A stretch of DNA of 40,000 nt. Origin: Pseudomonadota bacterium. Its GTDB lineage: Bacteria > Pseudomonadota > Gammaproteobacteria > Burkholderiales > Ferrovaceae. The notes below the pieces were generated by a model that saw only the letters and a program-made list of their open reading frames with translations, was not told where the DNA came from and made no database searches. This document shows, piece by piece, positions 72-12,461 of the stretch. The DNA lies in NCBI GenBank assembly GCA_021805445.1, contig JAJZFH010000047.1, forward strand, positions 161,322-201,321, written 5' to 3'. The position numbers and the translations under genes were made by a program. Position 1 is the first letter of the stretch, and every line of letters begins with the position of its first letter.

Positions 72-533
72 TCAGACAGCCTTCAAGACATCTCCCGCAG
101 CATCCACTACGGTCATCCGCACCGGAATCCCCTGAGCCACACTGCGCCCCACCGTACAAAACTCTTCAAACTGACCCAGGATACGGTCGAGATGGGCATA
201 TTTCGCTCCTTCCTGTGGCAGACGCAACATCACCCGGATCTCCAGCACGCGCAAGCGCCCTGCCGGGTTGCGCCCAATCTCTGCCCAGCCCTGCGCCTTC
301 AATGCGCCTTCCAGAGTTGGATTGAACTTGCGCAAGGCAAAATACAAGGCATCCGCCAAACAATTGGACACGGCAGCGGCCAATAATTGCGCCGGGGTGG
401 GACCCTTACCCTGCCCCAAGGGAGGAGACTCATCGCCCAGCCACGCAGGGCCCCCTGTACCGAATTGAATTTCGAAACAAAAGTTCTCCTGCTGGGTCAA
501 CGTCACGCCATGCGCCGGGTTCTCTGGAGTCAC
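72..533 (-). CDS. OsmC/Ohr-family peroxiredoxin-like protein
   Basis: 153-aa ORF with the two conserved Cys contexts typical of OsmC-fold proteins (..LLAAAVSNCLADAL.. and ..FEEFCTVGRSV..). Its start overlaps the upstream cytochrome stop by 4 nt (530-533). Confidence 0.8.
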   Translation of the reverse strand: MTPENPAHGVTLTQQENFCFEIQFGTGGPAWLGDESPPLGQGKGPTPAQLLAAAVSNCLADALYFALRKFNPTLEGALKAQGWAEIGRNPAGRLRVLEIRVMLRLPQEGAKYAHLDRILGQFEEFCTVGRSVAQGIPVRMTVVDAAGDVLKAV

Positions 534-964
534 TGAGGTTTTCCACCCATATCCAAAGGTTTTCCTTGCGCCAGGCTGGTCACATACACGGTTAGGGCCG
601 TCAGTTCGTCACTGCCGTAGGCGGGCGCTTTACCCTGGAGCGCCATGCCCACACAGCCGCGAATCTGGTCCGACAACGTAAACACCCGCCCCGCCTTTGC
701 CTTGTAACGAGGAAATATGGCTGCCGCATTGCTCAGACTGGGGATGGCCTGCCCGTCAGGACGACGTCCCGGTCCCACCCCGCCATTGAGATGGCAGGAT
801 TCACAAAACGCTCCATTGCCGTCAAAGGTCGCATGACTGAACAGGTCCTTCCCCTGTTGCACCACCTTGTCCAACTCGGGATCCAGTCCCACCCCCTGTG
901 CCACGACCATCCAACTTCCCAACACCAGTCCCAGCAATCCCTTGATGTTCGCTCTTCCTGTCAT
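530..964 (-). CDS. Exported monohaem c-type cytochrome
   Basis: Single CxxCH haem-binding motif (FCESCH). The ATG at 964-962 is preceded by GGAGGG and followed by a signal-peptide-like MTGRANIKGLLGLVLGSWMVVAQG. The track ORF extends to 1000, but the internal ATG with an SD is preferred. The C-terminal ..SDQIRGCVGMALQGKAPAYGSDELTALTVYV.. is reminiscent of SoxA/TsdA-type domains (from memory, unverified). Confidence 0.75.
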   Translation of the reverse strand: MTGRANIKGLLGLVLGSWMVVAQGVGLDPELDKVVQQGKDLFSHATFDGNGAFCESCHLNGGVGPGRRPDGQAIPSLSNAAAIFPRYKAKAGRVFTLSDQIRGCVGMALQGKAPAYGSDELTALTVYVTSLAQGKPLDMGGKPQ

Positions 965-1268
965 GATGTTCCCTCCAAGATTGACGCACTCACTGCCCAT
1001 CGGCGTCGAAAAAAGATTTTTAACTGCTGTCGTGCTCGTCCTTTATGGACCAAGTCTACCACGGCTCCACGGAAAATCCTGGAGTCGCGCGAATCGGTCA
1101 ACCCGGGGCATTTGAGTGATGCCGTCCGCCGAACCTGAACACTTCGCCAACCCATTCCTCAAGAGATATGGCCTCGATGCCGAGGCCGATGTCATCCGCA
1201 CGGCCGCGAAAGTCTTCGGTGATGTAACCGCCGTCCACCCGCTCCAGCGTCGTGTAATCCAGACTGTG

Positions 1269-2333
1269 TCAATCCGAAAACAGATTGGCGATGCGCTCCC
1301 TGTTTGGCTGGCGCACAACCCCCCGTTCTGTTATGAGGGCGGTCACCAATTCTGCTGGCGTGATATCGAAAGCCGGATTACGAACCATGACGCCTTGAGC
1401 TGCCCACTGGCATTCCCGGAATCCAGTCACCTCGTCAGCCGATCTTTCCTCGATCGGAATGTCTGCGCCACTGTCGATAGTCCTGTCTATCGTGGATAAC
1501 GGGCACGCCACATAAAACGGGATGCCATGCCGCTTCGCCAGGACTGCCACCATGTAGGTACCGATCTTGTTCGCCACGTCGCCATTGCTTGCCACACGGT
1601 CAGTGCCGACCACCACTGCGTCAACTTCGCCTCGACTCATCATGAAGCCTGACATGTTGTCGGTGATCAGCGTCACCGGGATGTTTTCCTGCACCATTTC
1701 CCATGCGGTCAGCCGCGCACCTTGCAGAAATGGGCGTGTCTCGCCGGCGATGACCGAAATTTTCTTGTCGGCCTCGACCGCAGAACGGAACACGCCGAGC
1801 GCCGTACCCCAGCCCGCGGTAGCCAAGGCTCCTGCGTTGCAATGAGTCAGCACTCGCGCACCGTCTGGCAACAGTTGCGCACCATGCGCGCCCATCGCGC
1901 GATTGATCCGGATGTCTTCCGCCAGAATCTCGTGCGCCTCGGTCAACCAACGCTGCGCAACCACGGAATTATCCTGCCCATCCATGCTCGCCCAGACCCG
2001 GCGCATGCGCTCCAGCCCCCAGAACAGATTGACCGCAGTCGGACGGCTTTGCGCCAGCACAACGAGTCCGGCCTCCATGCCCTTTCTGAAATCCTCCTTC
2101 GACATACCCCGCAAACGCAATGCTTCCAGTGCCACGCCATAAGCCGCCGCTACGCCGATGGCTGGCGCGCCGCGCACTACCATGCTGCGAATGCCTTCGG
2201 CCACCGACGATGCCGAATCGCAAGCAATATACTCGAAGGCCGCAGGCAGGATGCGCTGGTCGATCATCTCCAATTTGCCGTTTGCCCATCGTAACGTTTC
2301 AACCCTCACCTTCAGTCGCCCTCGAATTCGCAC
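1269..2333 (-). CDS. mtnA: S-methyl-5-thioribose-1-phosphate isomerase (eIF-2B alpha/beta/delta-like family)
   Basis: 354-aa ORF with ..[17 protein letters not shown].., ..[15 protein letters not shown].., ..[10 protein letters not shown].., ..[21 protein letters not shown].., ..[12 protein letters not shown].., all typical of MtnA. The track start at 2333 is GTG and overlaps apt by 22 nt. An alternative GTG at 2309 would remove the overlap. Confidence 0.9.
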
Positions 2334-2839
2334 AAGGCAAAGACGTTATGTCCGTGCTTTTCCAGCCGCGCACGTCCACCGAGGTCAGGGAGGTCGATGA
2401 TGAAACAGCATTCGATGATCCGTCCTCCCATTTTCCCAATCAACTTGCACGCCGCTTCCGCCGTTCCGCCCGTTGCAATCAGGTCGTCCACCAGCAATAC
2501 CTTCTCACCCTTTTCGATGGCATCGGTATGAATCTCTATGCGGTCAGTCCCGTATTCGAGTTCATAGTCATGACCGATGGTCTCTGCGGGCAACTTGCCC
2601 TTCTTGCGAATCGGCACGAAGCCCTTGCCCAAGGCGTACGCCAATGGGGCTGCCAAAATGAATCCGCGTGATTCGATTCCTGCGACCTTGTCGATACTTG
2701 CGTCCACATAGCGACGTACCAGTTCATCCACGGTGACGCGCAGACCCACCGGATCCTTGAGCAAGGTCGTGATGTCGCGAAACATGACGCCTTGTTTGGG
2801 ATAGTGCGGGACAGTGCGAATGCGGGATTTGATTGGCAT
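2312..2839 (-). CDS. apt: Adenine phosphoribosyltransferase
   Basis: 175-aa ORF with ..[15 protein letters not shown].., ..[15 protein letters not shown].. and the PRPP-binding loop ..[16 protein letters not shown]... Confidence 0.93.
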
Positions 2840-2872
2840 GCTGATTCCTGTGGTGTGCGTACTGTCAGAGGG

Positions 2873-3775
2873 CTATCGGTTGAGTACGCGTGCGGCAACG
2901 GCATCCAGATGCCTGATTTTTTCCGGATCGCGCGCCTGCGGGGCGGTGATCAGCGCATGTTCCAGCGCCGTGCGGCAGGAACACACGTGGGCCCCCGCAT
3001 CTGCAGCCAGTTTCGGGACGACATGCTTCACCAGGCTTCTCGCCCTGTCGGCATTTTCCAGCAGGACCTTGACGATCTGGTCTACCGTCACATCGTCGTG
3101 ATCCGGATGCCAGCAGTCGTAATCCGTGACCATCGCCACCGTGGCATAACATAATTCGGCCTCGCGCGCGAGTTTGGCTTCGGGCATGTTGGTCATGCCG
3201 ATCACATCGCATCCCCAGGTTTGGTAAAGTTCGGATTCCGCCAAACTGGAGAACTGCGGACCTTCCATGACGAGATAAGTGCCACCACGAAGCGCGGCAA
3301 TACCTGCCTCATTCGCAGCCACCTCGAGATGATCCCCAAGGCGGGAACACACTGGGCGCGCCATCGACACATGCGCTACCAGCCCAGTGCCAAAGAACGA
3401 CTTGTTTCGTGCAAAAGTTCGGTCGATGAACTGATCAACGATGACAAACATTCCCGGTTTCAAATGTTCTTTCAAAGAACCCACCGCACTGACCGAGATC
3501 ACGTCGGTCACGCCAGAACGTTTCAAGGCATCAATATTGGCGCGGAAATTTATTTCAGAGGGGGGAATCGTGTGACCGCGTCCATGGCGTGGCAGAAACA
3601 CCAACTGCTGGCTGTTCAGTTCGCCGAACAGCAATTCGTCGGAAGGCTCTCCGAATGGCGAGGATACTTTTTCCCAGCGCTTGTTGACGAGGCCATCGAT
3701 GTCATACACCCCGCTGCCGCCGATGATGCCAAATACAGGCACCCAATTCGCTTCACTCATGCCGGTTTTCCCCAT
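2873..3775 (-). CDS. mtnP: S-methyl-5'-thioadenosine phosphorylase (MTAP)
   Basis: 300-aa ORF with ..FGIIGGSGVYDIDGL.., ..FLPRHGRGHTIPPSEINFRANI.., ..GCDVIGMTNMPEAKLAREAE.., typical of the MTAP/PNP family. An alternative ATG lies at 3760 (MSEANW..). Confidence 0.9.
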   Translation of the reverse strand: MGKTGMSEANWVPVFGIIGGSGVYDIDGLVNKRWEKVSSPFGEPSDELLFGELNSQQLVFLPRHGRGHTIPPSEINFRANIDALKRSGVTDVISVSAVGSLKEHLKPGMFVIVDQFIDRTFARNKSFFGTGLVAHVSMARPVCSRLGDHLEVAANEAGIAALRGGTYLVMEGPQFSSLAESELYQTWGCDVIGMTNMPEAKLAREAELCYATVAMVTDYDCWHPDHDDVTVDQIVKVLLENADRARSLVKHVVPKLAADAGAHVCSCRTALEHALITAPQARDPEKIRHLDAVAARVLNR

Positions 3776-3796
3776 GGTTTGTTTTCGCCAACAAGG

Positions 3797-5773
3797 TCAG
3801 ATCACGCGGTCATTTCCACCATCCACCGGTAGCCATGCCCCCGTGGTCTTGGCAAATAATGGGCCGCACATTTCTGCTGCCAATTCTGCCACATCGCGGC
3901 TCGTTACTTCGGTCTTCAGCACATTGCCGGTCTTGTATTCCTGCACGGTCAGCCCATAGTGCCTGGCGCGTGCAGCCAGCACTTCCTCGGTCCACAGCCC
4001 GGTGTCGAACACGGCATTCGGATGCAACGAGTTGATGCGGATATTGTCGGCACCCCATTCCAGTGCAGCCACGCGCGCCAACTGGTTGAGCGCGGCCTTG
4101 GAGGCAGAGTAGGCGGCAGCGCCCGGCCCCGGCGCCGGCACGTTCTTCGAGCCAATCACCACCACGCGGCCGCCGCAAGGGGCCAACTTGAGAAAAGGGT
4201 GGCATTCGCGCATCAGCATCAGGTTGGCATCGAGATTGACGCACATCACTTTCTGCCACTCATCGGTTTTGAGGGCATCGATGCGGCAGCCCCCAGGAAA
4301 AATTCCTGCGTTCAGCACCAGCATGTCCAACCCACCGAATTTTTCAATGGCCTGCTCCAACGCCCGCATAAAGTGCGGCTCCGAAGTCAGATCGCATTGC
4401 ACGCCAAAAAAATTCGTGCTTTTCTTCATCCCAATCACCGCTGCATTCAGATCCAGCGCCACAACCGCCGCACCGCGGGCCAGCAGCGATTCGACGCAGG
4501 CCTTGCCGATGCCGGAAGCCGCACCGGTGACCAGCGCAATCTCGCCCGCAAACTGCGGTGCCTTGCCCCCCTTACGCAACTTGGCCTGCTCCAGGTCCCA
4601 GTATTCGACATCGAAAATATCCCTGGACGGCAATGCGCGGTAGCCACCCAGTGCGGTGGCGCGCAGGATGATGTCCATGGTGTGGTCATAGATATCGGCG
4701 ACGATATCCGCATCCTTTACGGTCCGGCCTATCGCGCACAATCCGAGTTCTGCATCCAGCACCACGCGCGGCACCGGATCCAGCATGGTTTTTCGTTCCC
4801 TGGCCTGCGGCTCCAACTCCACGAAATATTTCCTGTATTCGCTCACATAAGCCACCACGTTGCGCCCGATCATCGGCAGTCGCTTGGTACGAATCACATG
4901 GTCGGGCGTGGCCGGCCCCTGTTGCGCAATCAGGGCAATATCCGGACGACGGGCGAAAGACAGCGTACGGCCGTTCGCATGGCGCGAAACGATGACCGGA
5001 AGCCCCGCCGCTTTCGACACGTCGAAGCGCAACTTGGCCAAGCCGTGCATGACCTCAGCCCCACGGGGCACACTTCCAACCGTCGGGGTAAACTCCCAGG
5101 CATCATGTTTTTTGAGATAATCTTCGGCGCGGCCGACCAATGAAATCATTCGTTCGTAAGATTCCCTGGCGCTCTGACCGAAGGAGAAAATGCCGTGATT
5201 CAGCAGCACCATGCCGAGGGTATTCGGCCCGGCTTCGGCGGCGAACCGTTCCGCACATAGCTTGGCGAGTTCGAAACCTGGCATGACGTAGGGAATGACG
5301 ACCACGTCATCACCGTAGATCCCGCGGATTCTCGCTTCGCCATCTACCGTGTTGGTGATCGAAATGATCGCATCCGCATGGGTGTGATCCACATAGGGAT
5401 AGGGCAGAATGGCGTGCAGGATGGCCTCCACCGACGGCACCGGGGCCGAGGCGCGAGTCTGGTGAGTGACCAACTGGTTGACCATTTCGGGATCGGACAG
5501 TTCTGGCAACTTGGCCAGCTTCTGCAGGTAGTCCAGTTGCACTGGCGCAAAACCCGGCGCCTCGATGGTTTCCAGATCCCAGCCGCTGCCCTTGACGAAG
5601 AGCACCTGCTCCTCTTCGCCGAACACATTCCTGACTGCCATTTTCACCGAAGTATTGCCGCCGCCATGCAGCACCAGCGACTTGTCCTGCCCCAGCAGAC
5701 GCGAGGTATATACGCGCAACGCCAGGTCATCCCGATGACTTGATGCTGCCGTTTCCTCCCACAGATTACGCAT
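3797..5773 (-). CDS. Bifunctional class II aldolase/adducin-domain protein fused to a short-chain dehydrogenase/reductase (RhaD-aldolase/ADH-type architecture)
   Basis: The N-terminus has ..RVYTSRLLGQDKSLVLHGGGNTSVK.. and the metal-His region ..YVDHTHADAIISITN... The C-terminus has the SDR cofactor motif ..ALVTGAASGIGKA.. and the catalytic YSASKAA (YxxxK). The preferred start is the ATG at 5773, preceded by GGGGAGGAG. The track ORF reaches 5803. Confidence 0.85.
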   Translation of the reverse strand: MRNLWEETAASSHRDDLALRVYTSRLLGQDKSLVLHGGGNTSVKMAVRNVFGEEEQVLFVKGSGWDLETIEAPGFAPVQLDYLQKLAKLPELSDPEMVNQLVTHQTRASAPVPSVEAILHAILPYPYVDHTHADAIISITNTVDGEARIRGIYGDDVVVIPYVMPGFELAKLCAERFAAEAGPNTLGMVLLNHGIFSFGQSARESYERMISLVGRAEDYLKKHDAWEFTPTVGSVPRGAEVMHGLAKLRFDVSKAAGLPVIVSRHANGRTLSFARRPDIALIAQQGPATPDHVIRTKRLPMIGRNVVAYVSEYRKYFVELEPQARERKTMLDPVPRVVLDAELGLCAIGRTVKDADIVADIYDHTMDIILRATALGGYRALPSRDIFDVEYWDLEQAKLRKGGKAPQFAGEIALVTGAASGIGKACVESLLARGAAVVALDLNAAVIGMKKSTNFFGVQCDLTSEPHFMRALEQAIEKFGGLDMLVLNAGIFPGGCRIDALKTDEWQKVMCVNLDANLMLMRECHPFLKLAPCGGRVVVIGSKNVPAPGPGAAAYSASKAALNQLARVAALEWGADNIRINSLHPNAVFDTGLWTEEVLAARARHYGLTVQEYKTGNVLKTEVTSRDVAELAAEMCGPLFAKTTGAWLPVDGGNDRVI

Positions 5774-6139
5774 ACTCCTCCCCATTCGGATTCTCAAAAC
5801 CATTTTCGTTGCCTGTAAGCCACCACTCGTAGCCTGTTGCCTTCGGCCAGAAGCAGCCCGTCATGAGTTTTCCCAATAACGGACACTCGCGAATGACAGA
5901 CATGGAATTGCAACTTTGCAGTATGCCAGGATCCCACGAAATTCTGAATCCGAACGAGCGGAATACCCATCGACGTCTCCCATGGTTGACGACAACTTCT
6001 TCGTGACCATGGACGGTGACGTGCTGCGCTCCCTCGCGGCACACCTGCGACGATCACTCATGTGCTAGAATCCAATCCATACCGGGTTGCCCGGCAAGGT
6101 ACGAGCCGTGGGCAATCATACCCACTAAAACCAATCCCC

Positions 6140-8062
6140 ATGCCGTTTCAGAAAGCCATCCATCCCGTACTGTCCCTCCCTCGCCTGACCAAACGGTTGC
6201 TGGTGCTGATCGTGGATGCCTGTCTTTGCGTGCTCACGGTCTGGCTGGCCTATTACCTGCGCCTGGGTGAATGGGTATTCCTGTCCGGCCCCCCCTTATG
6301 GGCAGCGATCACTTCCGTCGCGCTGGCCCTGCCCGTGTTCGTTGCCTTCGGACTCTACCGGGCTATTTTCCGCTATTCCGGATGGCCCGCCCTGATGGCG
6401 GTCACGCGGGCCTCCTTCGTATATGGTTTGATGTTCGCCGCCCTCTTCACCGCCATCGAGGTGCCTGGGATTCCGCGCACCGTGGGGTTGATGCAACCCC
6501 TGCTGTTGCTGCTGGCCGTGGGGGCTTCCCGGGCCATGGCGCGCTTCTGGCTGGGCGGGGAATATCAGAATCTGCTGAAACACGACACCCTGCCCAGAGT
6601 CCTGGTTTACGGGGCCGGAACCTCGGGCCGCCAGTTGGCGGGGGCTCTGGCCCACAGCCATGAAATGCGCGTGGCAGGGTTTCTCGACGACGACCGCCTC
6701 CTGCAAGGCAATGTGCTGGACGGGCACCGTATCTACGCCCCCAGCGACCTGCCCGCCCTGAAGGAGACCCTCCAGATAAGCGACGTACTGTTGGCCATTC
6801 CCTCGCTCAACCGGCACCAGCGCAATGAGATCCTGGAGTTGATGCGTCGCTCCCGTGTATCCGTGCGCACCCTGCCCCGCATGGCCGACCTGGCCCAGGG
6901 ACGGGTCAGCATCTCCGCCCTGCGCGAACTGGATCTGGAAGATCTGCTGGGCCGGGAACCCGTGGCCCCCAACCACATCCTCCTCAGAAAAAATATCCAC
7001 CACAAGGTGGTGCTCGTGACCGGTGCCGGTGGCTCCATCGGCAGCGAACTGTGCCGCCAGGTCGCAGGTCTGGACCCAACCGCCCTGCTGCTGGTGGAAC
7101 AAAGCGAATTTGCCTTGTACGAATTGCACCAGGAGTTGCTGTCCCGGGCCCCCCCCTTCAAATTGGTTCCCTTGCTGGCCTCCGTGCAGGACAGCCACCG
7201 CATGCACGAAATCCTCTCCACCTGGTCGCCCCACACGGTATACCACGCCGCCGCCTACAAACATGTGCCCATGGTGGAACATAACCCGGCGGAAGGACTC
7301 AAGAACAACGTACTGGGCACCTTCACTACCGCGATGGCCGCCCTGGGAAATGGCGTGTCGGACTTTGTGCTGATCAGCACGGACAAGGCCGTACGCCCCA
7401 CCAACGTCATGGGGACCAGCAAGCGTCTGGCTGAAATGGTCCTTCAAGCCTTGGCGGCGGAATCCTCCGCCACCCGGTTTTCCATGGTGCGTTTCGGCAA
7501 CGTGCTGGGATCTTCCGGTTCCGTGGTGCCTCTGTTCCGCCAGCAGATCAAGGAGGGAGGCCCCATCACCCTCACCCATGAGGAAGTGACCCGCTATTTC
7601 ATGACCATCCCCGAAGCCGCCCAACTGGTCATCCAGGCCGGCGCCATGGCCCGCGGTGGAGACGTGTTCGTGCTGGACATGGGAGAACCCGTCAGGATCA
7701 TGGATTTGGCGCGCCGCATGGTGGAACTGTCCGGCCTGCGGGTGCGCGACAGCGAAGATCCGGAGGGGGACATCAAAATTCAGGTGACTGGCCTGCGCCC
7801 CGGAGAAAAACTCTACGAAGAACTGCTCATCGGCAACCAGCCCGAACCCACGGAACACTCACGCATCATGAAAGCCCATGAAGATTTTCTGGGATGGTCA
7901 AAACTGGACAGTAAACTTGATGCCCTCACGGTAGCCCTCAATTCCAACGACGTGGACCTGATCCGGTCATTGCTCCAGCAACTGGTCCCCGGATACCAGC
8001 CGGAAGGCGACATCGTGGACTGGGTACACCTGGAACAGAACGCAGAGGAACCGGACGGATAA
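6140..8062 (+). CDS. Membrane-anchored nucleotide-sugar 4,6-dehydratase / polysaccharide biosynthesis protein (CapD/WbpM/PglF family)
   Basis: N-terminal TM helices (..LLVLIVDACLCVLTVWLAYYL..), a first Rossmann segment (VLVYGAGTSGRQL) and a second SDR domain with VLVTGAGGSIGSEL, ..HAAAYKHVP.. and ..NVMGTSKRLAE... The ATG at 6140 is chosen over the longer track start at 6062. Confidence 0.85.
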   Translation: MPFQKAIHPVLSLPRLTKRLLVLIVDACLCVLTVWLAYYLRLGEWVFLSGPPLWAAITSVALALPVFVAFGLYRAIFRYSGWPALMAVTRASFVYGLMFAALFTAIEVPGIPRTVGLMQPLLLLLAVGASRAMARFWLGGEYQNLLKHDTLPRVLVYGAGTSGRQLAGALAHSHEMRVAGFLDDDRLLQGNVLDGHRIYAPSDLPALKETLQISDVLLAIPSLNRHQRNEILELMRRSRVSVRTLPRMADLAQGRVSISALRELDLEDLLGREPVAPNHILLRKNIHHKVVLVTGAGGSIGSELCRQVAGLDPTALLLVEQSEFALYELHQELLSRAPPFKLVPLLASVQDSHRMHEILSTWSPHTVYHAAAYKHVPMVEHNPAEGLKNNVLGTFTTAMAALGNGVSDFVLISTDKAVRPTNVMGTSKRLAEMVLQALAAESSATRFSMVRFGNVLGSSGSVVPLFRQQIKEGGPITLTHEEVTRYFMTIPEAAQLVIQAGAMARGGDVFVLDMGEPVRIMDLARRMVELSGLRVRDSEDPEGDIKIQVTGLRPGEKLYEELLIGNQPEPTEHSRIMKAHEDFLGWSKLDSKLDALTVALNSNDVDLIRSLLQQLVPGYQPEGDIVDWVHLEQNAEEPDG

Positions 8063-8107
8063 AATTCGCCTCACCTGCCGGGAGTTGACTTGATTATAAT
8101 CCCCCTT

Positions 8108-9541
8108 ATGTCTTCCCCTTTCTTTCGCCCCGTCAGGATTGGTCACGCCACCCTGGTCAACGCGCTTGGCACGGTCATCCCCGGTCTCGTCATGGTGGCC
8201 ACGGTGCCCCTCTATATCCGCTCCATCGGCGAAGCCCGTTACGGAGTTCTGGCGCTTCTTTGGCTGTTACTCGGCTATTTCGGGGTCTTTGACCTGGGTT
8301 TTGGGCGTGCCCTCACCAACCGCTTTGCCGCTCTCCCCCCCGATGCTCACCTTCTCCGCCAACGAGCTTTCTGGACCGGACTGGGGCTCAGCCTCGGTGC
8401 CGGATGCTTGGGCGGCGGAATTCTCTACGCTCTGGGAACTCATTTTTTGGATACCTTTTCCTTGACCGTCCCCCTGCGACAGGAATGTCTGGTCACCCTG
8501 CCCTGGGTGCTGTTCGCCTTGCCCTTGGCCACGGTTCTGTCCATTCTCTCCGGTGCCCTCATGGGGCAACAGGCCTTCGTCGCCCTGAACGGTGGGCAGG
8601 CTCTGGGCAATCTGCTGTTTCAGTTATGTCCACTGATCCTGGCTGTGAGCCACCATCCCACCCTTCCCGCCTTGGTCCCCGCCGCCCTGTTGGGTCGATC
8701 GGTCAGCGTCATCGCCCTGGGACTTGCTTGTCGGCGCAAAATCCCTATCACCGGTCCTCCCCATTTTTCCACCGCCGAAATCCGGCCTCTGCTCCACTTC
8801 GGCGGGTGGGTCACGGTCACTGCCCTGGCGGGTCCCCTGCTCACCGTCTTCGACCGTTTCGTCATTGGCGCCCTCAGTGGAGTCACAGCGGTCACCGCTT
8901 ATACCGTGCCCTTCAATCTGGTCAATTATTTGATGATTTTTCCCGCCAGCCTGCAGAAAGCGCTCACCCCCACCCTGACCGCCACATCGGAACCCGAGGC
9001 TCGCCAGCACGTCCTGTACTACACCCGCCTGCTCACCACCCTCATGACGGTCACGGTCCTATTGGCTCTACTGGGCCTGAAATCTTTTCTCGATCTCTGG
9101 TTGGGTCCCCGCCTGGCCCCAACCACCGAACCCATTGGCACCGTCCTGCTGCTGGGCATCTGGATCAACGCCCTGGCCTTCATCCCCTTCACCCACCTGC
9201 AATGCCGAAACCGCCCCGACTTGCCAGCCCGCTTTCATCTGCTGGAACTGCTGCCCTATGGCTTGGTGCTGTGGGGACTGATCTCAACCTTTGGAGCCGT
9301 CGGTGCTGCCTGGGCCTGGGACCTGCGCGTCGCCGTCGATGCTCTCCTGTTGTTCTGGGCGGCAGGTAGCCTGCAGGCCTTGCGCCATAGTCTGAGCGAG
9401 GGATTGCTACTCGCCCTGGCCTTTGCCCTGACCCAACTTCTCCCCAGTCCTTCCCTGTTGTATCTGGCCTTGGCCTGCCCCTTGATCCTGCTTACCCTGT
9501 GGCGAGCCTGGACCCGCTTTCCCCGTCGTTACCCTTTGTGA
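8108..9541 (+). CDS. Polysaccharide/oligosaccharide flippase (Wzx-like, MOP superfamily)
   Basis: A roughly 478-aa polytopic hydrophobic ORF located in a glycan locus, with an N-terminal ..ATLVNALGTVIPGLVMVATVPLYIRSIGEARYGVLALLW.. typical of Wzx/PST-family proteins. The track start at 8090 is TTG. The ATG at 8108 is used here. Confidence 0.7.
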   Translation: MSSPFFRPVRIGHATLVNALGTVIPGLVMVATVPLYIRSIGEARYGVLALLWLLLGYFGVFDLGFGRALTNRFAALPPDAHLLRQRAFWTGLGLSLGAGCLGGGILYALGTHFLDTFSLTVPLRQECLVTLPWVLFALPLATVLSILSGALMGQQAFVALNGGQALGNLLFQLCPLILAVSHHPTLPALVPAALLGRSVSVIALGLACRRKIPITGPPHFSTAEIRPLLHFGGWVTVTALAGPLLTVFDRFVIGALSGVTAVTAYTVPFNLVNYLMIFPASLQKALTPTLTATSEPEARQHVLYYTRLLTTLMTVTVLLALLGLKSFLDLWLGPRLAPTTEPIGTVLLLGIWINALAFIPFTHLQCRNRPDLPARFHLLELLPYGLVLWGLISTFGAVGAAWAWDLRVAVDALLLFWAAGSLQALRHSLSEGLLLALAFALTQLLPSPSLLYLALACPLILLTLWRAWTRFPRRYPL

Positions 9542-9708
9542 TTGATTTACCGGGAACAGACGTTTACACTCGGCCCATCTGTCATGATGAACCCAAAGAT
9601 GACCCCGACCTGCTTTGACCCCAACGCCGCACCCGTCATCCGCCGCCGCCTTCCCCTTGTTGGGGACCACGAGAACAGGGTAAATGTGCACCCCTGCGCC
9701 GGAGCGTC

Positions 9709-10761
9709 ATGACTCCCTGGCCAGAAGGGCAACTGGATATCGTTGAACACTGTCCCCTCTGCCATTCTCCGGAGCGCATCGTACTCCATGAAGGATTGAC
9801 CGACCGGATCTTTTTCAGCGCTCCTGGGCGCTGGACCTTGTACCGGTGTACCCAATGCCTCTGCGCCTATCTCGATCCCATCCCCAGCCAGGCAAGCATT
9901 GCCTTGGCCTATCAAAATTATTACACCCACGGAGCAGACCCCTCCAGCACCTTTTGGCTAAAGCGTCTCAAGCAATCCCTACTGAACGATTACCTCAACG
10001 CCCGTTACGGAAGTTCCTTGTCCCCCCATTCACCGCTCGGACGCTGGATCATTCCCCTGTTTTTCCCCTTGAAAAACAAAGCCGACATGCAAGTCCGTCA
10101 CTTGCCCTATGCCTCCGGAACCGCCAAGGCCCTGGCGGATATCGGCTGCGGCAACGGCGACTTCCTCGCCCTCGCCACCCGTTTGGGGTGGGACGTCTGG
10201 GGAACTGACCTGGACCCCACAGCCGTGGAATTTGTGCGCCGCCGTGGGTCACGGGTCCAATGCAGCGGTCTGCCCGACACCGGCTTGCCCTCTCGCCATT
10301 TTGACTATGTCACCCTCAGCCATGTCATCGAACATGTACCCGATCCCCGTGCCACCCTGCAGGAAATGCGCCGGATTCTCAAACCCGGCGGACGGCTCTG
10401 GGTGTCCACCCCCAATCTGGACAGTTTTGGACACGAGCACTTCGGACGGCATTGGCGCGGACTGGAACCACCCCGCCATCTTGTGCTCTTCACTCAGGCC
10501 ACCCTGATTCAACTGCTCGAAGAACAGGGGTTTACCCACCTGACGGTCCACCCACCCGAGGTACCGAGCCGCTGGCTCTATCAGTCGAGTGAGCGTATCC
10601 GCCAGGGCAAGGATCCCTACGATCCCCAAGCCGGTTCCCTCTCTGCAGCCCTGTCCCTTCGATCTCTGCTGGCCGATCTGCGGGTGCTGTTCCTGACCTC
10701 CGGGCGGAGCGAATTTCTCACGATCTCGGCGCAATGCCCGCCCTCTGATCCTGACTCATGA
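9709..10761 (+). CDS. Class I SAM-dependent methyltransferase with an N-terminal Cys4 zinc-ribbon
   Basis: CPLCHS...CTQCLC (CxxC-x28-CxxC), then SAM motif I ..LADIGCGNGDFL.., ..LSHVIEHVPDP.. and ..LKPGGRLWVSTPN... Confidence 0.8.
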   Translation: MTPWPEGQLDIVEHCPLCHSPERIVLHEGLTDRIFFSAPGRWTLYRCTQCLCAYLDPIPSQASIALAYQNYYTHGADPSSTFWLKRLKQSLLNDYLNARYGSSLSPHSPLGRWIIPLFFPLKNKADMQVRHLPYASGTAKALADIGCGNGDFLALATRLGWDVWGTDLDPTAVEFVRRRGSRVQCSGLPDTGLPSRHFDYVTLSHVIEHVPDPRATLQEMRRILKPGGRLWVSTPNLDSFGHEHFGRHWRGLEPPRHLVLFTQATLIQLLEEQGFTHLTVHPPEVPSRWLYQSSERIRQGKDPYDPQAGSLSAALSLRSLLADLRVLFLTSGRSEFLTISAQCPPSDPDS

Positions 10762-11507
10762 CCGACCCGCGCGCGCCCAGGATCGCCGTCTCCATCGTCA
10801 GCCATCGTCAGGCTCCCCTGGTCCAGGCACTGCTGGAGGATTTGGCGCAGCACGCCCCCGATGTGGCGATCCATCTCACGGCCAACCTGCCCGAACCTCC
10901 CCCCACTGCCCTTCTCCCCTTTACGCTGCTCACCAATCCTCACCCCAGGGGATTTGGAGAAAACCACAACGCCGCCCTCAAAGACAGCGATGCAGACTTC
11001 TTCTGTGTCCTCAATCCGGATATCCGTCTCACCAGCAACCCCTTTCCCGCCTTGCTGGAGGGTCTGAACGACCCCCGGGTCGGGCTGGTCGTTCCGCAGG
11101 TCTCCACGGCCCAAGGCATACCCGAGGATAGCGCCCGGCACTTTCCTACCCCGTTCGGATTGATGAAGAAAGTCGTGGGCTTGAATGATGGGCGTATCCT
11201 TTCGTCAGGCAGCGAACCCTATCCCATCGATTGGGGTGCCGGAATGTTCCTGCTGTTTCGGGCCAAGGCGTTCCGTGCCGTTCAGGGTTTCGATGAGAAC
11301 TTCTTCCTGTATTATGAGGATGTGGATATTTGCGTCCGTCTCTGGGCCCGGCACTGGCAGGTCAAACTCTGCCCACAGGTCACCGTCATCCATGACGCAC
11401 GACGGGATAGCCGCAGGAAACTGCGCTACACCCTGTGGCACCTATCCAGCATGGCCCGCTATTTTTTCAAACACGGCGGACGCCTTCCCGCCACGACGGC
11501 AAGATGA
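10758..11507 (+). CDS. Glycosyltransferase family 2
   Basis: ..IAVSIVSHRQAPLV.. (GT-A N-terminus), ..FFCVLNPDIRL.. and ..FFLYYEDVDICVRLW.., typical of COG1216-type GT2 enzymes. There is a 4-nt ATGA overlap with the methyltransferase. Confidence 0.75.
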   Translation: MTDPRAPRIAVSIVSHRQAPLVQALLEDLAQHAPDVAIHLTANLPEPPPTALLPFTLLTNPHPRGFGENHNAALKDSDADFFCVLNPDIRLTSNPFPALLEGLNDPRVGLVVPQVSTAQGIPEDSARHFPTPFGLMKKVVGLNDGRILSSGSEPYPIDWGAGMFLLFRAKAFRAVQGFDENFFLYYEDVDICVRLWARHWQVKLCPQVTVIHDARRDSRRKLRYTLWHLSSMARYFFKHGGRLPATTAR

Positions 11508-11522
11508 CAGCCCGGTCCGAAT

Positions 11523-12461
11523 TCATACCCGATTGAAAAGAGCTGCCACGAGTAACCCCAGTTGCCCGATGGCATGCTGGCGATGGACCCCGGAGCGTTT
11601 CAAGCCCAGCAAGCGCCCCTTCAAGGGTTGTTGTCGCGCCCACAGAAAAGTGCGCAGGGTCAGGGCATTCTCCAAGGTCAGGTGGCTCTCCAGACGCCGC
11701 AGGGCGCAGACGTGAATATCAGCCCAAAAAACGTAGTGCCGCTTCCACATGAAGCCCAGTCGAGACCAGCGTTTTGACCAACTGAGGCTGGCACCCACCA
11801 GGTTTTTCTCATGCTGGCGATAATTCAGGGAGGGCAGGGGATCGTAGCAGACTTGTCCGCCACACCCCGTCACCACCAGGTAAGTCCACCAGTCAAAAGT
11901 CACGACTTCCACCTCGGGTCCCGCTTCCTGCAACAAAATGCGGGCCGCCTGATTGAATACCATGGTGTTACCGCCGGCAATATTCTGCATGAGGGCATTG
12001 GCAAAGGACGGAGGTCGTTGCATCAGGGGAGAGAATCCACAAGGCAGGCCCTGCTCGTCCACCAAACGGGTACGCCCACAATACAAAGCCGGAACGGAGG
12101 CAGGGACCGTCGACAGCCAGGCCACAGCCCGGGTCAGTTTATCCCCATCCCACACGTCGTCCTGATCCGAGTAGGCGTAATAATCCGCCTGAATTTCGGA
12201 CCGGTATACCAGGGACAAAAAATTGGTCACGAACCCCCGCTTCGGCCCCGCCACCACCTTCATGCGTCCGGTCCACCGATCCTGATACTCCGCCAAAATC
12301 TCCAGGGTACCGTCCGTAGACCCATCATCCGAAGCCCACACCTGCCAATTCCCATGGTGCTGTGCCTCATAGGAGGCCAACTGCTCACGCAGAAATGCCG
12401 CACCATTGTAAGTGGCCAGCAGGATGGCGACGGAGGTGCCAGACTCTCCATTAGGATCCAT
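11523..12461 (-). CDS. Glycosyltransferase family 2 (rhamnosyltransferase-like)
   Basis: ..VAILLATYNGAAFLREQLASYEAQ.., ..WASDDGSTDGT.. and DxD-type ..YSDQDDVWD... It converges on the preceding GT2 gene with a 15-nt gap. Confidence 0.8.
   Translation of the reverse strand: MDPNGESGTSVAILLATYNGAAFLREQLASYEAQHHGNWQVWASDDGSTDGTLEILAEYQDRWTGRMKVVAGPKRGFVTNFLSLVYRSEIQADYYAYSDQDDVWDGDKLTRAVAWLSTVPASVPALYCGRTRLVDEQGLPCGFSPLMQRPPSFANALMQNIAGGNTMVFNQAARILLQEAGPEVEVVTFDWWTYLVVTGCGGQVCYDPLPSLNYRQHEKNLVGASLSWSKRWSRLGFMWKRHYVFWADIHVCALRRLESHLTLENALTLRTFLWARQQPLKGRLLGLKRSGVHRQHAIGQLGLLVAALFNRV

Follow-up and report, generated by a model that had tools for sequence, protein, structure and literature searches.

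Why should a gene of the kind normally named rhamnulose-1-phosphate aldolase/alcohol dehydrogenase stand at the head of an operon for nucleoside salvage? We addressed this question in a 40,000-nt stretch of a probably Ferrovum-like genome (contig JAJZFH010000047.1; the whole stretch is called the window below), in which a fusion of a class II aldolase and a short-chain dehydrogenase/reductase (SDR) precedes mtnP, apt and mtnA. The comparisons described below indicate that the fusion is not a rhamnose enzyme and that it very probably takes up the product of MtnA. The four genes are intact open reading frames, all on the minus strand, and occupy positions 1269–5773 of the window:

3797–5773, minus strand: fusion, RhaEW-like, of the Glu-type clade defined below; 658 amino acids; NF006196 (PRK08324.2-4), 1083.4 bits against a cut-off of 831
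2873–3775, minus strand: mtnP, 5'-methylthioadenosine (MTA)/5'-deoxyadenosine phosphorylase; NF006492, 512 against 437; TIGR01694, 299 against 275
2312–2839, minus strand: apt, adenine phosphoribosyltransferase; TIGR01090, 230 against 186
1269–2309, minus strand: mtnA, isomerase acting on methylthioribose-1-phosphate or 5-deoxyribose-1-phosphate; TIGR00512, 444 against 279

The mtnP, apt and mtnA products exceed equivalog cut-offs, and the fusion, with the Pfam content Aldolase_II plus adh_short, exceeds that of NF006196, to which no substrate is assigned. The ATG start of the fusion is preceded by a GGGGAGGAG ribosome site, mtnA starts with GTG in agreement with its homologues, and mtnP could start just as plausibly at a second ATG, at 3760. 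The original prediction of four co-directional genes with gaps of 21, 33 and at most 2 nt was borne out: 21 nt separate the fusion from mtnP (36 nt with the ATG at 3760), 33 nt mtnP from apt, and 2 nt apt from mtnA.

Host gene content and the step after MtnA

The host genome (1.97 Mb in 68 contigs, 100% complete; best named homologue from F. myxofaciens, 86%) holds a single copy of mtnA. No Pfs/MtnN was found in it, and mtnP is its only PNP_UDP_1 member. By their established family functions, MtnP would free adenine together with 5-deoxy- or 5-methylthio-ribose-1-phosphate, and MtnA would convert this sugar phosphate to its ribulose-1-phosphate form; Apt would recycle the adenine. For the step that follows, genome-wide searches detected neither acireductone dioxygenase (ARD/MtnD) nor MtnC above cut-off, and no RuBisCO-like protein (RLP), just two full-score RuBisCO large subunits. 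The lack of mtnB, mtnC and mtnD genes, at first noted for the window, therefore holds throughout the genome, and a canonical methionine salvage pathway, for which MtnB, MtnC (or MtnW/MtnX) and MtnD are required, is not encoded elsewhere in it. The sole Aldolase_II match of the whole genome is the fusion itself; no second class II aldolase was found, and a tblastn search with Ald2 was negative. For the step after MtnA, the fusion is thus the one candidate that the host genome offers.

The operon would serve as a salvage unit for 5'-deoxyadenosine, which comes from radical S-adenosylmethionine (SAM) enzymes, and for MTA. The former is the likelier main input, because nine radical SAM genes exceed their cut-off, whereas the single SpeE-like gene falls below its own and no clear MTA source was found in the genome.

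Architecture of the fusion and two clades under one name

An AlphaFold model of the fusion (pLDDT 92) resolves three domains:

Residues 1–222 (5108–5773, minus strand): domain 1, class II aldolase fold with a GGGN phosphate loop, Glu116 and the metal triad His130/His132/His193
Residues 232–405 (4559–5080, minus strand): domain 2, a degenerate class II aldolase-fold repeat, in which the His triad is missing and other motifs are conserved
Residues 408–658 (3800–4552, minus strand): domain 3, a complete SDR with TGxxxGIG, Asp441, NAG, Ser542, Tyr555 and Lys559

Catalytic and metal motifs were examined across 120 homologues. E116/H130/H132/H193 of the fusion align with E73/H92/H94/H155 of E. coli FucA, Glu116 (codon 5426–5428) thus taking the E73 position, while domain 1 has about 18–24% identity to FucA/Ald2-type proteins; the mtnA-adjacent Ald2-like genes of three genomes (G319, G020 and G028) served as Ald2 stand-ins. 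Domain 2 carries the motifs P290-D291-x3-R295 and E390-Y-W-x2-E395, which it shares with rhamnose RhaEW. Predicted alone, it reached a pLDDT of 90.8, and its top 15 structural matches were all of the class II aldolase fold (best Z 9.5). Asp441 sits at the end of the second SDR strand, and we take it, from general knowledge of SDRs, as the mark of an NAD(H)-type cofactor. The solved relatives are an uncharacterised Thermoplasma N-domain (3m4r, 44%; Z 32.4 and root-mean-square deviation 1.5 Å over 212 residues of the domain 1 model) and generic SDRs (22–33%), and these structures do not tell the substrate of the fusion.

Against the rhamnose family TIGR02632, the fusion scores 416.6 bits, below the cut-off of 567.75. 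The fusions of 400 Pseudomonadota genomes form score tiers, and two trees, one built from 120 sequences and the other by IQ-TREE from 51, separated a rhamnose clade from a second clade, each with 100% support and with the host fusion outside the former. The acid position is Asp in 12 of 12 rha-linked copies, in line with the published acid residue of RhaE (PMC3870299), and Glu throughout the other clade (Glu116 in the host fusion), which we call Glu-type. RhaI or RhaA together with a kinase adjoins the fusion in all 12 rhamnose-clade loci examined, whereas linkage to rhaA or rhaI was found in none of the 64 loci of the close relatives of the host fusion. The host genome likewise has no match to RhaI, RhaA or RhaK. 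Five alphaproteobacterial genomes keep both paralogues, and in rhizobial genomes that do so one adjoins rhaI and the other lies near mtnK-mtnA. Judged by these sequence comparisons, the fusion is not a rhamnose RhaEW, and the suspicion that the "rhamnose" label is wrong for this locus is supported.

The Glu-type clade is tied to mtnA, which is present in 61/61 and 49/50 Glu-type-fusion genomes of two sets (110/111 in all) versus 5/18 genomes with the rhamnose type only. We report this co-occurrence as counts with no p-value, because mtnA is common and the genomes are related, so that the counts overstate the association. The fusion is the only Aldolase_II match in 48 of the 61 genomes of the first set; within the host genus, the two genes occur together in three genomes and are jointly missing from five. 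At the level of the locus, mtnA or mtnP was found at 33 of 64 fusions, or at 26 of 47 when loci with enough flank are counted. The order fusion-mtnP-apt-mtnA recurs in Gallionellaceae and in one zetaproteobacterium, fusion-mtnP-mtnA in Steroidobacteraceae and a Chloroflexia bin, fusion-mtnA in Burkholderiales and fusion-apt-mtnA in Zetaproteobacteria; a convergent mtnA lies beside the fusion in Limnothrix, and rhizobia and plasmid pOANT04 of Brucella anthropi have a regulator-fusion / ABC / mtnK-mtnA layout. In other loci, too, apt accompanies mtnA/mtnP. Since the grouping of the four genes is conserved in other genera and reassembled in other orders, it is not due to chance. Relatives with mtnA and no fusion carry a stand-alone Ald2/FucA-like gene, which adjoins mtnA in four genomes (G020, G021, G028 and G319), an alternation to be expected where one enzyme has displaced another. 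All genomic tests that were run support the central claim of the original prediction, namely that the fusion completes an MTA/5'-deoxyadenosine route after MtnP and MtnA, and we hold with considerable confidence that it acts on the MtnA product and replaces Ald2/DrdA.

Several observations weigh against this assignment as a rule for the clade. MtnD, with one clear match among the 61 genomes of the first set, is present in 16/50 fusion genomes of the second; such coexistence would fit a 5'-deoxyadenosine role, by analogy with Bacillus, where drd clusters coexist with the canonical pathway (PMC6079011). No mtn neighbour was found in 21 of the 47 loci with enough flank. In one gammaproteobacterial group of the Tenderia/Chromatiaceae type (L032 at 3445–8977, L039 and L061), the fusion follows genes for a glycerol kinase-like protein, a glycerophosphodiesterase (GDPD) and an FAD oxidoreductase. 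The mtnA gene of these genomes lies elsewhere, and many of them also encode MtnD; the placement may reflect either the shared product dihydroxyacetone phosphate (DHAP) or a different substrate. Finally, two plasmid copies of the Glu type lie in sugar/polyol uptake clusters (R. leguminosarum pRL1, L171, 9001–11049; Shinella p1, L172, 8001–9956). Both have D291E and R295H in domain 2 and were probably recruited for other substrates, which implies that the Glu-type clade does not have one function. From the loci with no mtn neighbour, the glycerol-type group and these two copies with altered domain 2 motifs, we conclude that the substrate of some clade members has probably changed.

Two further loci bear on how the cassette is built and spread. 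On pOANT04 (L173, 1707–13781), a split transketolase and an RLP come after the regulator-fusion / ABC / mtnK-mtnA cluster, possibly as two exits for the same ribulose-1-phosphate intermediate. The zetaproteobacterial locus (L008, G106:C3:173910-178347) holds the full four-gene cassette with 77–84% protein identity to the host, whereas other zetaproteobacterial fusions have about 52% identity to the host fusion; the tree places the L008 fusion with the host genus, inside the Gallionellaceae set, which suggests transfer of the cassette among iron oxidisers.

Direction and order of the reaction

The only assayed relative of the host fusion is RhaEW, which converts rhamnulose-1-phosphate and NAD+ to DHAP and lactate, is inactive with NADH and forms no DHAP when NAD+ is omitted (PMC3870299). 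Some DHAP would be expected from a plain aldolase even with no cofactor supplied, so this behaviour favours oxidation before cleavage. A second line of evidence came from LsrF, the thiolase acting on 3-hydroxy-2,4-pentanedione 5-phosphate (P-HPD), which is formally C4-oxidised 5-deoxyribulose-1-phosphate. Of 80 genomes, 24 encode an LsrF-family thiolase; every one of these 24 has a Glu-type fusion, none of the 18 rhamnose-only genomes is among them, and in 17 lsrF adjoins the fusion. These proteins score about 500 bits against a cut-off of 297, share 61–70% identity with E. coli LsrF and keep Lys203. None of the five lsrF-bearing genomes tested has lsrK above cut-off, so the LsrF substrate there is not derived from autoinducer-2 (AI-2). 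The arrangements include apt-lsrF-fusion (G154), lsrF 1 kb from fusion-mtnA (L053), lsrF-fusion on a Shinella plasmid, a mtnA-mtnK / ABC-RbsD-Rpe-like-lsrF cluster (L174, G323:C18, 5972–14371) and a lsrF-Rpe-like-fusion cluster (L176, G044:C19, 6378–10209). An Rpe-family epimerase accompanies lsrF in both of the latter and recalls lsrE of Salmonella, a gene with no assigned role. In the lsrF-associated fusion copies, the P290/D291/R295 motif is altered in 12/13; such loosening of N-half conservation is no more than a hint, since the non-lsrF group was the one used to define the invariants and 10 of the 13 copies belong to one clade.

We tentatively propose the following course. The SDR would first oxidise the C4 hydroxyl of 5-deoxyribulose-1-phosphate to P-HPD, and the metal domain would then split the C3–C4 bond of this diketone hydrolytically; as happens in aldolases, the DHAP enediolate would be stabilised by the metal. 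In place of Ald2/DrdA, the fusion would thus give DHAP, acetate (or methylthioacetate) and NADH; where LsrF is present, P-HPD would be taken by it and yield acetyl-CoA instead. The host genome has no lsrF (no NF006081 match in it or in the sister genome G006, and a negative tblastn search in the host), yet encodes an acetyl-CoA synthetase (acs). The same logic would explain both the lactate formed from rhamnulose-1-phosphate and the NAD+ dependence of RhaEW. In this proposal, RhaEW-type fusions would combine a ketose-phosphate 4-dehydrogenase with a metal-dependent beta-diketone hydrolase on the class II aldolase fold, and the Glu-type clade might represent widespread oxidative 5'-deoxyadenosine/MTA salvage through P-HPD, an intermediate that has to date been described in AI-2 breakdown alone; the end products would be DHAP plus acetate in the host or DHAP plus acetyl-CoA with LsrF. 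For 2-keto-3-deoxy sugar acids, there are known routes in which a diketo hydrolase acts after an SDR (PMC13406643).

These steps are held with unequal confidence: by analogy with RhaEW, the SDR probably works oxidatively and not reductively, while C4 oxidation ahead of cleavage is an order we regard as possible. The original prediction had the SDR half reduce (or oxidise) the released aldehyde; oxidation is likely and reduction disfavoured. It also had the aldolase half cleave the MtnA product, of which the position after MtnA stands, whereas this half may not be a plain aldolase, in that oxidation may come first. Two facts speak against the proposed order. The association with LsrF stems largely from a single class-level clade and is not seen in the host genome or its close relatives, and in domain 1 no aldolase residue is lost, which makes plain aldol cleavage possible.

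In the closest alternative, a sub-case of the oxidative reading, aldol cleavage comes first and the aldehyde is channelled to the SDR for oxidation to the acid. This would suit the retention of all class II aldolase residues, including the FucA/DrdA-type Glu, but it leaves unexplained that RhaEW yields no DHAP without NAD+ and that LsrF pairs repeatedly with the fusion. Free aldehydes are, moreover, rarely oxidised by SDRs, and we rate this order as rather unlikely. It is the published reading of RhaEW by Rodionova et al. (PMC3870299), although the closest characterised RhaW homologues named there oxidise secondary alcohols.

A one-protein version of the R. rubrum DHAP shunt, with aldol cleavage followed by NAD(P)H-dependent reduction to ethanol or 2-(methylthio)ethanol, is a weaker candidate still. 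The fusion occupies the place of Ald2, SDRs are often reversible, and R. rubrum uses an alcohol dehydrogenase to reduce the aldehyde (PMC6302742); RhaEW, however, is inactive with NADH (PMC3870299), 35 SDR positions are common to the Glu-type and rhamnose clades (as are 60 in the N-half), and the LsrF pairing indicates oxidation. It is also quite improbable that an imported sugar or another ketose-1-phosphate is the main substrate, an example of the latter being D-ribulose-1-phosphate from adenosine, which would give DHAP and glycolate or glycolaldehyde. Some members of the clade occur in clusters of the sugar/polyol or glycerol type, and salvage enzymes of B. subtilis accept ribose (cited in PMC6302742), but the family scores of the MtnP, MtnA and MtnK partners are those of MTA-type equivalogs, the host operon has no sugar transporter, and the acetyl product of LsrF requires a 5-deoxy substrate. 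We give very little credit to domain 1 as an MtnB-type dehydratase that opens a non-canonical methionine salvage branch, with the SDR reducing the 2,3-diketo product: MtnB has the same fold and His triad (PMC6302742), but no MtnB model appears among the best 25 NCBIfam matches of the fusion, no MtnC, MtnD or RLP is there to take up the product, and relatives substitute Ald2-like and not MtnB-like genes. An ordinary rhamnose RhaEW that adjoins salvage genes by accident is hardly credible, since the shared three-domain architecture, the 29–33% identity to rha-linked copies and the JGI name RhaD of homologues are outweighed by the sub-threshold score, separate clade, Glu for Asp and lack of rhamnose genes described above, and the genomic comparisons already contradict it.

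Surroundings, known systems and significance

A scan of the operon for promoters and terminators found no more sites than in shuffled sequences; GC is flat over the operon, and composition gives no sign of recent foreign origin. In three mine-drainage metatranscriptomes from one study, contigs of a related strain cover all four genes piecewise and none spans the operon, so they show neither its transcription nor co-transcription. Beyond the mtnA stop, 56 open codons (1098–1268, minus strand) are a deletion scar and not read-through: residues 3–40 resemble a YhgA-like transposase (39%; Transposase_31), and residues 27–56 correspond to the last part of an AAA/DUF4143 region; G006 keeps this region, with a broken transposase, in the ~2.3 kb separating mtnA from the cytochrome gene. 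The latter, with a SoxA/TsdA-type c cytochrome domain (72–1000, minus strand), lies downstream of the operon and overlaps an OsmC-like gene; no tie to the salvage genes was seen in the other loci compared. Divergent surface-polysaccharide genes (nucleotide-sugar dehydratase, flippase, methyltransferase and GT2) occupy 6062–12461, and glycan or glycogen genes also surround several Gallionellaceae cassettes.

Among known systems, the DHAP shunt, or 5-deoxyribose disposal (MtnP or MtnN+MtnK/DrdK, MtnA/DrdI and Ald2/DrdA, EC 4.1.2.62; PMC6079011, PMC10986504), shares with the host the phosphorylase-or-kinase and isomerase steps (NF006492, TIGR01694 and TIGR00512 above cut-off), the slot after MtnA, the domain 1 fold with its Glu/His3 site and the expected DHAP. 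It differs in its stand-alone FucA-like last enzyme, against a 658-residue three-domain fusion with its own dehydrogenase, in an aldehyde and not a predicted carboxylate as C2 product, and in that the host has apt inside the operon. RhaEW (YuxG) of B. subtilis and Chloroflexus aurantiacus (TIGR02632; PMC3870299) is a paralogue with the same architecture of aldolase-fold N-half and complete SDR, and probably the same net chemistry, ketose-1-phosphate and NAD+ to DHAP and an acid. The host fusion differs from it in clade, acid residue, score, tie to mtnA and never lying beside rha genes; RhaEW orthologues were stated to lie always in rha loci, and the Glu-type clade was not treated (PMC3870299). 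Fusions of sister clades stand beside LsrF and sometimes an Rpe-like epimerase, as LsrF and LsrE do in lsr operons, but the host lacks lsrF, and lsrF elsewhere comes without lsrK in the five genomes tested. In the L-fucose/L-rhamnose diketo-hydrolase routes (2-keto-3-deoxy-sugar-acid 4-dehydrogenase and FAH-family 2,4-diketo hydrolase; PMC13406643), SDR oxidation at C4 likewise precedes hydrolytic C3–C4 cleavage to two products, of which one is a carboxylate, although on non-phosphorylated acids and with separate FAH-fold hydrolases, where we propose a phosphorylated ketose and the class II aldolase fold. On sequence grounds, then, the operon is DHAP-shunt-like, yet its fusion is by defining features neither Ald2 nor RhaEW, and it is commonly mis-named. 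In a literature search of incomplete coverage, so that mention elsewhere is possible, no paper on the Glu-type clade was found, the 2013 study was the only one on RhaEW, and neither a link of LsrF to 5-deoxyribulose nor a role of methylthioacetate in MTA salvage came up.

Radical SAM enzymes yield 5'-deoxyadenosine in nearly all cells, and many genomes are without the known disposal gene trio, for which an unidentified aldolase was suggested to complete the route (PMC6079011). The Glu-type clade would fill this gap in iron oxidisers (Ferrovum-like bacteria, Gallionellaceae and Zetaproteobacteria), rhizobia, cyanobacteria and others, and the rhamnose label is corrected for autotrophs with no rhamnose genes. 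If oxidation does come first, a hydrolase activity would be added to the class II aldolase fold, the NAD+ dependence of RhaEW would be accounted for, and orphan LsrF genes would gain a substrate unrelated to quorum sensing.

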